Part shown: positions 40,202 through 58,753 of the stretch, in pieces | How the letters are laid out: each line of letters begins with the position of its first letter | Numbering within the stretch: the stretch's first letter is position 1 | Origin: Candidatus Melainabacteria bacterium GWF2_37_15 | GTDB lineage: Bacteria > Cyanobacteriota > Vampirovibrionia > Gastranaerophilales > UBA9971 | Direction of reading: 5' to 3' | Length of the DNA stretch: 62,195 nt | Assembly (NCBI GenBank): GCA_001784565.1 | Contig: MFRL01000086.1 | Span: 1 to 62,195, forward strand | Notes under the pieces: model-generated | The model's database searches: none | Seen by the model: the letters and a program-made list of their open reading frames with translations, nothing else | What the model was told of the DNA's origin: nothing | Made by a program: the position numbers and the translations under genes

Positions 40202-40274
40202 AGCCGGCAACGGGATTCGAACCCACGACCTGCGGTTTACGAAACCGCTGCTCTACCTGCTGAGCTATGCCGGC
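40202..40274 (-). tRNA. tRNA-Thr (anticodon CGU)
   Basis: The reverse complement is GCCGGCATAGCTCAGCAGGTAGAGCAGCGGTTTCGTAAACCGCAGGTCGTGGGTTCGAATCCCGTTGCCGGCT. It has anticodon loop TTCGTAA and a 7-bp acceptor stem. Confidence 0.88.
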
Positions 40275-40321
40275 ATAATTTTCTAATTTAATCATATACA
40301 AAAAATATTTAAGGTTAAACT

Positions 40322-40738
40322 ATGCCAAGAGAACTAACCGAAAAGCAAAAGAAATTTTGCGAATGTTATGTTGAAACAAACAGTGTTAAAAAATCCGGGG
40401 AAAAGGCTGGCTACGCAAAGTCAACAATTAAAGGCAGCCTATATAGATATTTGAAAAAGCCTTTAATAATTGAGTATATAAAAATTCTTAAAGTTAACAA
40501 AATATACAGTATTGAACAGCTTGTTAAAGACCTTAACACAGCAATGGAAGTGGCAGTAGAGGCCAAAAAACCTGACCAGATTATTAAAATTATTGAATTC
40601 AGAATGAAATTATCCGGTCTTGAAGAGCTTATAAAGCCAGAAAATAAAACTATTGTAGAAGACAAACCTGAAAAAGATTTTTTTAAAGAAATTGAAGAGC
40701 TGACAAATGAACTTGAACGAAAAGGTTACACTGATTAA
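40322..40738 (+). CDS. Terminase small subunit
   Basis: LTEKQKKFCECYVETNSVKKSGEKAGYAKST is the HTH motif of the Terminase_2 type. The gene sits immediately upstream of the large subunit. Confidence 0.75.
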   Translation: MPRELTEKQKKFCECYVETNSVKKSGEKAGYAKSTIKGSLYRYLKKPLIIEYIKILKVNKIYSIEQLVKDLNTAMEVAVEAKKPDQIIKIIEFRMKLSGLEELIKPENKTIVEDKPEKDFFKEIEELTNELERKGYTD

Positions 40739-42014
40739 GACAATTTATAACAATAAATATATACCTGAAAAATTTAGGCCAACAAATAAACAAATAAAAT
40801 TTCTTCTTAATGAAAAAAGAGAAGTGCTTTATGGCGGGGCAGCAGGGGGAGGCAAATCAGTAGCGCTATTAATGGCGGCGTTGATGTATGTGGATGTGCC
40901 AAATTACAAAGCATTATTGCTTAGAAGAACTTACTCTCAGCTCGCATTACCGTGCGCATTAATGGATATGGCGCATGCCTGGCTGGATGATAAAAAAGAC
41001 GCTACATGGTGCGCACAACAAAAACAGTGGACTTTCAAATCCGGTGCAACTCTAACCTTCGGTTATCTTGATACGGAAAGGGACAAGTATAGATACCAGG
41101 GTGCAGCCTTCCATTTTGTGGGATTTGATGAGTTAACCCAGTTTACAGAAGCACAATATATTTACTTGTTTTCAAGAATAAGAAAATCCATAACAACTGA
41201 AATTCCTTTAAGGTTTAGAGCAGCATCTAATCCTGGCGGGGTAGGACATGACTGGGTAAAAAAAAGGTTTTTTCAAGAAAAAACACCTGACAGGGTTTTT
41301 ATTTCGGCAGGTTTGAGTGATAACCCTTATCTTGACAGGGAAGAATATGAAAAAAACCTGAATGAGCTCGACCCGGTAACAAGAAAGCAGCTCAGGGACG
41401 GGGATTGGGATATATTGCCGGGGGGTAACTTTTTCCATCGCGAAAAATTTGAAATTGTGGATGATTATCCAAAAAATGCCAGAACTGTCAGGTACTGGGA
41501 TATGGCGGCATCGGAAAGGTTCGGGGCTGACTTTACTGCAGGGGTTAAGATTTGTGCCTATAACGGGCAGTATTGGATTGTGGATGTTATCAGGGAAAAG
41601 AGTTCCCCGGCAGGAATTGAGAATTTAATAAAACAGACTGCTGAACTGGACGGTATAGGCGTGGAAATCTTTATGGAGCAGGAGCCGGGTAGCTCAGGGA
41701 TTAACACAATTAGCCATTATGCCCGGAATATACTTAACGGGTTTGCATTTAAAGGTATCAGGAGTACCGGAAGCAAGATCACACGAGTGCAGCCTTTTGC
41801 GGCGGCAGTGGAAAACAATAATGTTAAGGTTGTCCGGGGGTTATGGAACCGGGCATTTATTGATGAATGCGTGATATTCCCGCAGCCAAATTACCATGAT
41901 GACCAGGTGGACGCGGCTGGTGGGGCGTTCGAGCAGTTGAACTGGGCATCAAGCGTGGCACAGATTACTACTGCAAAGATTGACAGGGCGTCGAGGGTGT
42001 GCGAGGGGTATTAG
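40707..42014 (+). CDS. Terminase large subunit
   Basis: The Walker A motif is YGGAAGGGKS, the Walker B-like motif is FVGFDELTQF, and the C-terminal nuclease region reads YWDMAAS...DDQVDA. Confidence 0.88.
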   Translation: MNLNEKVTLIKTIYNNKYIPEKFRPTNKQIKFLLNEKREVLYGGAAGGGKSVALLMAALMYVDVPNYKALLLRRTYSQLALPCALMDMAHAWLDDKKDATWCAQQKQWTFKSGATLTFGYLDTERDKYRYQGAAFHFVGFDELTQFTEAQYIYLFSRIRKSITTEIPLRFRAASNPGGVGHDWVKKRFFQEKTPDRVFISAGLSDNPYLDREEYEKNLNELDPVTRKQLRDGDWDILPGGNFFHREKFEIVDDYPKNARTVRYWDMAASERFGADFTAGVKICAYNGQYWIVDVIREKSSPAGIENLIKQTAELDGIGVEIFMEQEPGSSGINTISHYARNILNGFAFKGIRSTGSKITRVQPFAAAVENNNVKVVRGLWNRAFIDECVIFPQPNYHDDQVDAAGGAFEQLNWASSVAQITTAKIDRASRVCEGY

Positions 42015-42020
42015 AGAAGC

Positions 42021-42317
42021 TTAGGAATCGTAGTTAGGAGTGGTATTTACTTTTATTTCTCCAACTACTTTGTAGTAAGGGCTTCCTTTTGGAATAACTA
42101 CAAGTTTTTCTGGAACAATGGGATGGCCATAACAGTCGCCATTACCATTATCATGTGTAACTAATATTTGTTCTCGAGTTTCTCTGCTTTTAACTATATG
42201 TCCTGGTACTACTTCATCGGATTTAGAGGGATGAAAGCCTAAATCTCTTATCTTTGCGTCAATTTTAGTCATTCCTGTAATTTGTGGTGAACTGCCAAAA
42301 CCTAATTTTGAAATCAT
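42021..42317 (-). CDS. Hypothetical protein, reverse-strand cargo between terminase and portal
   Basis: Clean 98-aa ORF with GGTAAT..ATG context and no recognised motif. Confidence 0.45.
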   Translation of the reverse strand: MISKLGFGSSPQITGMTKIDAKIRDLGFHPSKSDEVVPGHIVKSRETREQILVTHDNGNGDCYGHPIVPEKLVVIPKGSPYYKVVGEIKVNTTPNYDS

Positions 42318-42426
42318 AATATTACCTCTATTTGAAATTTTTAACTTACATATGTTCTAAAAACCCTAAAAAAAAGAATTAACACTTTTAGACAAAAATT
42401 TTTAAAAAAAATATTAAGGAGAAAAC

Positions 42427-57808: not shown

Positions 57809-57823
57809 CCAAGGAGTAAATAT

Positions 57824-58099
57824 ATGGCTGATAAAAAAATAACTCAATTAGATGAATTAACAAGCGTGAGTTCATCAGATTTAATGCTTGTGATTGATGA
57901 TCCAGCAGGCACACCAGTAAGCAAAAAAGCTACTATCCAAAATGTTGTAAACGCCGGGGCATCAGGTGTTTATTGTCGTTGGCGGGGCAGTGGATCAAGC
58001 ACACCCGATAGTCCGCAGGAAGGTGATATTTGGAACGACACTACCAGCGGCAATATTATTAAAATTTACGCAAACAGCGATTGGAGAGTATTAAACTAA
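57824..58099 (+). CDS. Small tail-fibre-like protein
   Basis: The N-terminal KITQLDELTSVSSSDLMLVIDD...SKKATI motif is common at tail-fibre N-termini. The C-terminus is GDIWNDTTSGNIIKIYANSDW. Confidence 0.45.
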   Translation: MADKKITQLDELTSVSSSDLMLVIDDPAGTPVSKKATIQNVVNAGASGVYCRWRGSGSSTPDSPQEGDIWNDTTSGNIIKIYANSDWRVLN

Positions 58100-58100
58100 T

Positions 58101-58487
58101 ATGACCGTAATGTTAAGAACACAGAATTTTCAGGCATATGAACTGAAATGCAAATGCGGCTGCGGAAAACTTAATTATGACAACCTTTTTCTTATGAAAC
58201 TTGAAGTATTTCGCTATTTACTGGGCAGTAGGCTAGAAGTGACATCAGGATGTCGGTGTATTAAACACAATCAAGCTGCTGAAGGTAAAAAAAATTCCTG
58301 CCACATTTGCGAAGGAAGAGCAGCAACAGCTGTAGACATATCCCCATTAGATACCGGCTGTTTAAATGTTTTTATTTTAGCGGTGAAAACAGGCTTTTTT
58401 AATGAAGTAATCTGGTATAAAACCAGAAATTTTATACATTTAGGCGTAGATAAAAACCAGAAGGAGCCCTATTATGAAATTATTTGA
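58101..58487 (+). CDS. Peptidase M15A-type endolysin
   Basis: Motifs are FQAYELKCKCGCG, VTSGCRCIKHN and SCHICEGRAATAVDIS (H..G.A.D zinc ligands), followed by IHLGVD. Confidence 0.8.
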   Translation: MTVMLRTQNFQAYELKCKCGCGKLNYDNLFLMKLEVFRYLLGSRLEVTSGCRCIKHNQAAEGKKNSCHICEGRAATAVDISPLDTGCLNVFILAVKTGFFNEVIWYKTRNFIHLGVDKNQKEPYYEII

Positions 58488-58689
58488 CGTTATTGTTGAT
58501 GCTGTAATGACAGCAGAAAAGGAATTCGGCGCAGGCCAGGGATTAAATAAAAAAGAACAGGTAATTAGCATGGTGAATGCGGTTGTCGATATTCCCGGGA
58601 TTCCTGAGTTTCTTGAAGAGAAGATTTTTTCCCTGATAATTGACCTTGTAGTCTACTTATTTAATAAATACAAGCTATTTGAAAAATAA
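58474..58689 (+). CDS. Holin-like small protein (tentative)
   Basis: It is 71 aa, overlaps the endolysin end, has hydrophobic N- and C-terminal segments, and contains a G.G..KKEQV motif reminiscent of phi-LC3/Hol44-type holins. Confidence 0.4.
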   Translation: MKLFDVIVDAVMTAEKEFGAGQGLNKKEQVISMVNAVVDIPGIPEFLEEKIFSLIIDLVVYLFNKYKLFEK

Positions 58690-58719
58690 TAAAATATATT
58701 ACCTAGAAGCTTATTTTCA

Positions 58720-58753
58720 AGCCTCTGGCCATTTAAGGCCAGAGGCTTTTTTA
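58720..58753 (+). terminator. Rho-independent terminator closing the phage-like operon
   Basis: The stem is agcctctggcc / ggccagaggct with loop atttaa, followed by tttttatt. Confidence 0.7.

Follow-up and report, generated by a model that had tools for sequence, protein, structure and literature searches.

Contig MFRL01000086.1 of Candidatus Melainabacteria bacterium GWF2_37_15 (62,195 nt, assembly GCA_001784565.1; analysed over its full length and called the window here) carries a cluster of phage head, tail and lysis genes, and the question it raises is whether these genes belong to a mobile phage, to a decaying remnant or to the bacterium itself. The host, a groundwater relative of cyanobacteria, belongs to the Gastranaerophilales (Melainabacteria, non-photosynthetic Cyanobacteriota). 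We propose, giving the proposal about an even chance of being right, that positions 35073-58753 encode a domesticated, host-maintained particle module resembling a gene transfer agent (GTA) or the PBSX particle. The best reading of its origin is that a siphophage combining a Mu-type head with a lambda-type tail tip was stripped down and fixed in the chromosome. As a candidate for a phage-derived particle owned by the bacterium, the element is credible but unproven. The original prediction had seen here a domesticated phage or GTA-like cluster; the lack of mobility genes, the conservation and the constraint on the genes favour that view, but a specific likeness to the Rhodobacter capsulatus GTA (RcGTA) does not survive.

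Gene content and extent of the unit

From its gene content, the phage-derived unit spans 35073-58753. Its left edge had been placed at the tRNA-Thr gene at 40202, which proved wrong: the edge lies at 35073, because a helix-turn-helix (HTH) regulator gene and an open reading frame (ORF) of 129 aa are conserved with the cluster in every relative. The 5 kb to the left of the tRNA, described earlier as orphan genes and repeats, do consist of variable cargo, but they are internal to the unit and not outside it. Gene calls were checked by Pfam, PHROGs or NCBIfam profile searches, which agree almost item by item with the structural genes first listed from the small terminase subunit to the terminator; the Mu-like character assigned to the head half is likewise supported by profile matches to Portal_Mu, gp36 and gp37 (E down to 3e-94). 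The regulators and core genes are as follows.

35073-35495, minus strand: XRE/cI-type HTH regulator, 140 aa (Pfam HTH_19/HTH_3; PHROG regulator/repressor families)
35496-35741, no strand: divergent control region with promoter-like sites
35742-36131, plus strand: 129-aa Cys-rich protein, ZnR129, lineage-specific and a hallmark of the reduced elements
40322-40738, plus strand: TerS, small terminase subunit (Pfam Terminase_2, E 8.5e-9)
40707-42014, plus strand: TerL, large terminase subunit (Pfam Terminase_6N and Terminase_6C)
42427-43638, plus strand: Mu-type portal, short form of 403 aa (Portal_Mu, formerly DUF935, E 3e-94, full profile)
45055-45921, plus strand: head maturation protease/scaffold, short form of 288 aa (phrog_976, E 2.6e-68)
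45949-46353, plus strand: cement or scaffold-like head protein, short form of 134 aa (Phage_cement_2, weak; phrog_673)
46384-47385, plus strand: major capsid protein (phrog_1005, E 7e-45; also a Phage_capsid_4 match)
47584-48042, plus strand: Mu gp36-like connector (Phage_Mu_Gp36, formerly DUF1320, E 2.5e-31)
48030-48422, plus strand: Mu gp37-like connector (Gp37, E 2.4e-26)
48435-48989, plus strand: tail tube (phrog_4971 major tail protein, E 2.9e-18)
49123-49536, plus strand: accessory tail-region gene orf137 (homologues of 165-196 aa in relatives and phage-type contigs)
49561-49872, plus strand: tail assembly chaperone, 103 aa (Phage_TAC_12 and TAC_11, both weak)
49865-50044, plus strand: 59-aa ORF overlapping the chaperone, conserved in relatives (phrog_10988 match)
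50059-50667, plus strand: tape measure, short form of 202 aa (PHROG tape-measure families over residues 49-164, central to C-terminal)
50668-51042, plus strand: distal tail protein, gpM/DUF2460-like (DUF2460, E 3.7e-14; Phage_min_tail)
52963-53592, plus strand: gpL/BR0599-like tip protein with a C-terminal four-Cys motif (Phage_phiJL001_Gp84_N, Phage_tail_L and Phage_BR0599, all under cut-offs)
53589-53921, plus strand: gpK-like NlpC/P60 tip protein (NLPC_P60, E 6.8e-8)
53909-57808, plus strand: J-like central tail fibre, 1299 aa (Pfam Phage-tail_3; NCBIfam TipJ-related, 90 bits)
57824-58099, plus strand: small fibre-like protein, 91 aa, without family match, sharing its N-terminus with syntenic 121-aa proteins of relatives
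58101-58487, plus strand: M15 peptidase, likely the endolysin (Peptidase_M15_3, E 9e-11)
58474-58689, plus strand: holin-like small protein, uncertain (phrog_6918, E 1.7e-4)
58722-58753, plus strand: intrinsic-terminator-like hairpin (9-bp GC-rich stem, then CTTTTT)

No integrase, transposase, replication or recombination gene was found in the whole window or in the 10 kb to its right, where AIM24, DivIC and haem-synthesis genes lie. This agrees with the original prediction for the window and extends it beyond the right end; the search for att direct repeats that it had proposed turned up no att-like or other flanking direct repeats around the unit. An integrase or recombinase with att repeats at the borders would mark an intact prophage, and neither was found here; to judge from its genes, the cluster is not an ordinary excisable prophage. 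The marks of a Mu-like phage (DDE transposase A, B ATPase, end repeats) were not found in any window ORF, and of the Mu head set the portal, protease, gp36 and gp37 are present, MuF being absent save for a doubtful 45-aa motif in a cargo gene. Because transposase and MuF are both lacking, the element does not appear to be a transposable Mu-like phage. What we find is the gene content expected of a GTA: a structural cluster without replication, integration or excision genes of its own.

The HTH regulator is likely the repressor of the unit. Its gene adjoins the cluster in all relatives with 59-73% identity; together with the 129-aa gene it is found in relatives at 57-76% identity, in some of them only 0.7 kb from TerS. 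Between the two genes lie promoter-like TTGACA-17-TAAAAT at 35525-35553 (plus strand, 11 of 12 consensus matches) and TTGACT-17-TATTTT at 35577-35549 (minus strand); both are consensus matches only, overlapping and divergent. ZnR129 has four invariant cysteines (C4, C5, C30 and C35) and no Pfam or PHROG match. Among 5.8 billion proteins it is represented by only 26 clusters; where members lie on long contigs, reduced elements are there too, and most of the others are on short fragments. An AlphaFold2 model (predicted local distance difference test score 84) is beta-rich and gives weak PUR-alpha-like fold matches (E 0.05, TM score 0.35), from which ZnR129 is possibly a DNA-binding activator.

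Since a tube and a lambda-type M/L/K/J tip are present and a sheath gene is absent, the gene set indicates a non-contractile tail. Truncation of the tape measure by decay in the window genome was considered and rejected, 201-271 aa being the norm in all reduced relatives; truncation of the DUF2460 protein was rejected likewise, as 123-131 aa is the length of the family and the protein also matches gpM. Some relatives have two tandem tape-measure-like genes (L017 5725-7244; L019 6611-8593), and one such tandem gene in CAZLCO010000005.1 appears to start with a lysozyme-like domain. The gpL/BR0599-like protein is 65-83% identical to its counterparts in relatives. In the J-like fibre, a K1-lyase_Rider match (26.1 bits) is just under the cut-off of 27, and the C-terminal 839 aa have no sequence match in PDB; this C-terminal part is a probable polysaccharide-binding or -cleaving region. 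The M15 peptidase is common only to the window and CAZLCO, and other relatives have a different, 148-aa peptidase.

Conservation and ancestry of the reduced elements

All close relatives of the phage-like proteins come from metagenome-assembled genomes (MAGs) of Gastranaerophilales. At least 7 species-level MAGs have clusters of identical gene content and order, with 60-93% protein identity. Capsids of this clade form about 16 clusters at 90% identity, and each contig of the clade that was read shows the same layout. Two of the MAGs (CAZLCO010000005.1 and CAYZIV01) are titled "uncultured Gammaproteobacteria"; this label is probably wrong, as both have a Gastranaerophilales-type locus and CAZLCO also a syntenic trpB flank. 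In each of the relatives examined, some 20 core ORFs are intact. Comparison with six relatives shows saturation of the synonymous sites (proportion of synonymous differences, pS, 0.6-0.85), and the nonsynonymous distance (dN) is 0.05-0.3 for most core genes, about 0.5-0.7 for TerS and up to about 0.45 for the small fibre, the holin-like gene and orf137 behaving likewise against distant relatives. The ratio to the synonymous distance (dN/dS), where computable, does not exceed about 0.2: 0.05-0.06 for TerL (pS saturated at 0.75-0.81), and 0.03-0.07 for the capsid within the reduced clade. Purifying selection acts on the core genes. TerS stands out with an identity of only 26-39% to its relatives, versus 65-75% for TerL and 83-93% for the capsid; its divergence suggests a change or a relaxation of DNA recognition. 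In CAZLCO, TerS and TerL read as a single fused ORF of 602 aa.

The surroundings of the element are conserved as well. CAZLCO010000005.1 (74 kb), which is the closest relative, shares the right flank (trpB 83%, DNA methylase 81% and AIM24 72% identical), with a dN of its flank genes (0.11-0.18) within the range of the element genes; this comparison of synteny and selection had been proposed as a check on domestication, and together with the low dN/dS its outcome favours it. On the left, a GT2 glycosyltransferase, an FAD oxidoreductase and a PMT_2 protein are conserved in four other lineages and have diverged like the element. Conservation and selection would fit maintenance by the host, as would a right flank common to the window and CAZLCO and a left flank common to four other lineages. 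In tetranucleotide signature, the structural genes correlate with the host at r = 0.93 (the neighbouring polysaccharide locus, 0.94), and only at 0.33-0.61 with phage-type contigs. Assembly depth is about 10-11x over the element and 10-15x over its flanks, and among the assembly contigs none skips the whole element or shows an element-wide deletion joint. The shared flanks, composition and depth are in keeping with the long residence and vertical inheritance first claimed for the cluster; the claim is qualified by a circular relative, described below.

More distant, phage-type relatives (L029/L045, L030, L031/L046 and L047, of which the last is represented by a 13.6-kb contig) come from contigs that reach 54-65 kb and have capsids 59-75% identical to that of the window. 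They are collinear and homologous with the window element from portal to J-like fibre at 43-75% identity, and their TerL is 57-60% identical in L029/L045, L030 and L031/L046. They differ in having Phage_Mu_F and Phage_tail_S (MuG-like), seen only in phage-type contigs and not in reduced elements, as well as tRNAs and longer head and tail proteins: the portal has 506-542 aa, the protease 425-449 aa, the cement protein about 250 aa and the tape measure 748-1023 aa. Dense arrays of small early-type ORFs are present in both phage-type contigs whose upstream regions were read (L045, L046), and the HTH and 129-aa regulator pair is absent from the parts examined. The reduced relatives have a portal of 403-415 aa, a protease/scaffold of 288-303 aa, a cement protein of 129-134 aa and a tape measure of 201-271 aa, without MuF and without the MuG-like gene; the window cement protein aligns to the first half of the 247-250-aa phage-type proteins.

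A capsid tree built by neighbour joining places the reduced elements in one terminal, monophyletic clade nested among the phage-type lineages. The whole clade shares the same losses: MuF and the MuG-like gene are gone, the portal has lost its C-terminus, the protease/scaffold and cement proteins are missing parts, and the tape measure has shed about three quarters of its length. Therefore, we read the history as one ancient reduction followed by maintenance and diversification. No cultured phage in INPHARED exceeds 29% capsid identity, and no report of GTAs or prophages of the Gastranaerophilales lineage was found in the literature searched.

Compared with known systems, the element recalls RcGTA in being a head-tail(-lysis) cluster without replication or integration genes that is conserved in a host clade, in its short tape measure, in the small ORF after the chaperone gene, and in a tip of DUF2460-, BR0599-, NlpC/P60- and Phage-tail_3-type proteins. 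It differs in its Mu-type head (Portal_Mu, gp36 and gp37 instead of the g3-g5 families), in its host phylum and in its XRE-type switch; RcGTA is under CtrA/GafA-type control. The tail had been said to mirror the g10.1-g15 module of RcGTA, and here the curated models fail: the window tail proteins reach 27.7 bits for TIGR02217 (cut-off 136.7), 17.4 for TIGR02218 (cut-off 80.5), no match for TIGR02219, and 34 for the GTA megatron model (cut-off 800); the TipJ-related (lambda J) model does better at 90 bits. The likeness is at the level of families and belongs to the generic lambda-type tip of many siphophages. Given its different head families and the failure of the curated GTA models, the origin of the element would be independent of RcGTA, and by these profile comparisons it is not a member of the RcGTA family.

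PBSX of Bacillus is a defective prophage with a contractile tail. The window element resembles it in architecture, with an XRE-family repressor beside terminase, head, tail and lysis genes, no replication or integration module and a fixed place in the chromosome; it differs in its host phylum and in its non-contractile, lambda-type tail without a sheath gene. A Mu-type head joined to a non-contractile tail is also known from Mu-like siphophages (Pseudomonas B3/D3112, Rhodobacter RcapMu). The window element shares this combination and is without their transposase A/B, MuF and Mu-type early region.

Cargo, repeats and neighbourhood

The gaps between the core genes hold cargo, which is listed here with the repetitive extragenic palindrome (REP) modules and the neighbouring loci.

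1-12373: housekeeping genes (tetratricopeptide repeat proteins, signal peptidase, polyprenyl synthetase, two tRNA-Leu, MgtC, RNase T)
12374-35052: polysaccharide locus, 23 kb
36132-40321: variable cargo (REP arrays, four unrelated ORFs, one of them DUF3795, and tRNA-Thr(CGT))
36142-40155 and 48993-49016: further REP modules
40202-40274, minus strand: tRNA-Thr(CGT), inside the unit between the regulators and TerS
42021-42317, minus strand: cargo ORF in the TerL-portal gap, no family match
43776-44855, minus strand: two cargo ORFs of 191 and 137 aa, no family matches, at the MuF/MuG-like position of phage-type relatives
44936-45003: REP hairpin modules
47405-47567: REP array, polymorphic between strains
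51039-52960, plus strand: window-specific insertion, 1.9 kb, GC 31%, with a toxin/immunity-like layout and an orphan tip

Between the regulators and TerS (36132-40321), the equivalent content differs in each relative. The tRNA-Thr(CGT) is found at the equivalent internal position in CAZLCO. A simple prophage at this tRNA gene was rejected, the tRNA being internal to the conserved unit, in the same place in CAZLCO and without att repeats; the earlier remark that integration at the tRNA 3' end does not explain the cluster holds, as that end points away from the structural genes. Genome-specific cargo is found in the TerL/portal, portal/protease, capsid/gp36 and gpM/gpL gaps. The first is an insertion hotspot, where relatives have a symporter, a P-loop protein or AAA_15+RloB; across the relatives the cargo also includes a GGDEF regulator, HicAB, ParE, HEPN/MNT and a tyrosine recombinase. 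The last is a 277-aa protein that follows a REP pair in the capsid-gp36 gap of a strain with an identical capsid protein (L035 6890-7723); in other assemblies the same site runs straight on to gp36. The 137-aa cargo ORF of the 43776-44855 region is weakly conserved in three relatives.

The insertion at 51039-52960 is absent from all relatives examined and consists of a 139-aa ORF, a 235-aa ORF (51443-52150) and a 131-aa membrane ORF. The 235-aa protein ends in a serum-amyloid-A-like domain (PF00277, E 7.8e-12, above cut-off), and the last 115 nt of its gene are repeated, with 77% identity, before a 77-aa ORF. Its N-terminal Cys motif weakly resembles the end of a MuF/minor head protein (phrog_115, E 7e-5). 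MuF homology of this ORF was rejected, as BLASTP against real MuF was not significant.

The REP modules occupy the four gaps in which they were first reported. At least 13 were found, all at 36.1-49.0 kb and so inside the unit, in about 72 kb of this genome scanned, and no copy lies in the other 47 kb or so that were examined. The copies at 36.1-40.2 kb, which had been taken as lying outside the cluster, are inside it given the edge at 35073. With all copies inside the unit, the window alone cannot show that they are host repeats or that the element has resided long among them. Their identity as host repeats is supported from elsewhere: in contig depth, REP bins stand at 90-210x versus about 10x for the rest, with divergent continuations into many sequences, and at more than 2000x in the sample of a relative, and in one Joint Genome Institute (JGI) contig the same REP adjoins a phosphoenolpyruvate carboxykinase gene. 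A co-occurring strain without 47386-47582 (the REP array; joint of 47385 to 47583, depth 5.8) indicates that REP insertion is recent and ongoing. The same gaps of relatives hold different REP sequences; therefore, each host species appears to have its own REP set. The system is modular, with at least 5 types of hairpin module combining into arrays, and a 97-nt composite is repeated at 36199 and 39011 with 94% identity.

The window has a GC content of about 37%. Public runs that contain its sequence are groundwater metagenomes, and genes identical to those of the window were found on contigs of up to 90 kb. GC drops to 26-29% in the core of the polysaccharide locus (25000-29000), which encodes sulfotransferases and a radical-SAM/SPASM enzyme, unusual for an O-antigen-like locus, and at the far edge of the locus lies a HigA-like antidote gene with a small upstream ORF (11710-12244). 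Of the left-flank genes beside the HTH gene, the FAD oxidoreductase is Amino_oxidase/NAD_binding_8 and PMT_2 a membrane glycosyltransferase; GT2 was seen in two of the four lineages, and JANQEP is without PMT_2. Their layout resembles phage gtr-type modules for glycan modification, and by this analogy they may be an old lysogenic-conversion part of the element. The left flank of the JANQIY copy appears to be a nif cluster. At L042 71-7540, genes that look nitrogenase-type by their sequences (NifD/K/E/N-like, NifB-like and a small ferredoxin-like ORF) and modA lie directly beside the element. On the right, a HicA/HicB pair lies between the holin-like gene and trpB (58817-59529); it is missing from the closest relative and therefore seems to have been inserted at the junction.

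Possible function and competing explanations

We suggest a plausible mode of action for the module. The HTH protein would repress the overlapping, divergent promoter-like sites (35525-35577) in the control region (35496-35741), and this switch would open in a fraction of cells, with the 129-aa protein possibly acting as activator. TerS and TerL would then fill Mu-type heads by the headful, and, because the element has no replication and hence no replicated phage genome, the packaged DNA would be chromosomal, perhaps from near the cluster. Short, non-contractile tails with a lambda-type tip, some 30-40 nm long as estimated from the 200-aa tape measure, would be added, the M15 peptidase would lyse the cell and free the particles, and the J-like fibre would bind surface polysaccharide on related cells.

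Several points weigh against a host-owned module. One is a circular relative. JAKLDH010000005.1 (55,846 nt) and a k141 contig from an independent assembly (55,945 nt) give the same sequence of about 55,804 nt in two circular permutations: each spans the ends of the other at 100% identity, and terminal overlaps of 141 and about 42 nt fit. The circle carries a reduced element whose capsid is 89% identical to that of the window, a gene pair of a coiled-coil HTH and an HTH_36 protein (a possible initiator) that is absent from the window, and a polysaccharide locus of about 23.5 kb; it could be a plasmid, an excised island or an assembly effect. Inheritance of this family of elements may therefore not be wholly vertical. 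Active prophages commonly have cargo and defence genes in such gaps, gap cargo being typical of active temperate phages too, and purifying selection and a host-like composition would be expected equally of an active temperate phage. Some decay is visible in orf137, whose ancestral start is lost (CAG at the codon aligned with the ATG, immediately after a stop) and which is missing altogether in JAKLDH. The holin assignment is weak; in the single phage-type contig that has a homologue (L031/L046), this lies upstream of the portal, away from the lysis genes. Finally, none of the sequence was found in metatranscriptomes, which were tiny SOLiD sets only. The circle also has toxin-antitoxin pairs (two HicAB, ParE and HEPN/MNT).

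These points bear first on the explanation that the element is still a self-transmissible temperate one, namely a phage-plasmid or excisable island with surface-polysaccharide genes and unrecognised replication or recombination functions, of which the window copy is an integrated and perhaps immobilised form. In its favour stands the 55.8-kb circle with its element, its two regulators including HTH_36 and its polysaccharide locus, of a size that is about one genome length of the phage-type relatives. Three relatives share the HTH_36/coiled-coil pair, most genomes have the element next to a polysaccharide locus, a gap of one strain holds the tyrosine recombinase, and one such contig is listed as viral by IMG/VR. 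Yet the copies of the window and of CAZLCO are without the HTH_36 pair and sit between chromosomal genes on contigs of 74-90 kb, at a junction older than synonymous saturation, and the JANQIY copy adjoins apparent nif genes. The approximately 53.8 kb of the circle that were examined hold no recognisable Rep, Par or integrase gene. No att-like repeats were found around the window unit, and depth is uniform, at 11-13x along the circle and, for the window element, equal to that of the flanks. We consider this explanation unlikely.

It is distinctly unlikely, in our judgement, that the particles are killer particles or a lysis and release device in the manner of PBSX and not vehicles of gene transfer. 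The PBSX-like architecture of XRE repressor, terminase, head, tail and lysis genes without a replication or integration module would fit, as would the polysaccharide-lyase-like rider domain of the J-like fibre and the toxin/immunity-like cassette in the tail region of the window. However, strong constraint has kept terminase, portal and the full head, which a device for killing alone could do without; the tail is short and non-contractile, and the toxin-like cassette is specific to the window. The mode of action outlined above is common to GTAs and PBSX-like elements, and the proposed module may be of either kind.

A more specific form of the GTA reading, that of an independent, Mu-type-head-derived GTA which moves serotype loci and is tied to hypervariable surface-polysaccharide loci, would follow from a fibre that reads polysaccharide, from the loci that adjoin the element and from a 55.8-kb circle of about one ancestral headful; we think it quite improbable. 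That the element is an inert prophage remnant on its way to decay, with no current function, is very improbable: whole functional modules are lost, foreign genes and REPs lie between core genes, the ancestral ATG of orf137 is mutated and TerS is poorly conserved between relatives, but the core ORFs are intact in every relative despite synonymous saturation, with dN/dS at about 0.2 or less, and the identical losses throughout the clade point to an ancient reduction and then maintenance.

To our knowledge, known GTA origins are few: Alphaproteobacteria, Bartonella, Brachyspira, Desulfovibrio and Methanococcus only. If a host-maintained particle module is the right reading, the element would be a further independent phage domestication, from a siphophage with a Mu-type head, in an uncultured and little-studied sister lineage of the photosynthetic cyanobacteria; it would add breadth to comparisons of how hosts co-opt phages and would offer a lineage-specific regulator to study. 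Its still-viral relatives give a before-and-after view of what was discarded: MuF and the MuG-like gene, all early genes, the portal C-terminus and most of the tape measure. Its association with polysaccharide loci, together with the circular relative, points to a testable way in which surface-antigen genes could be exchanged. If the element is instead an unrecognised phage-plasmid, this would likewise be new for the phylum.

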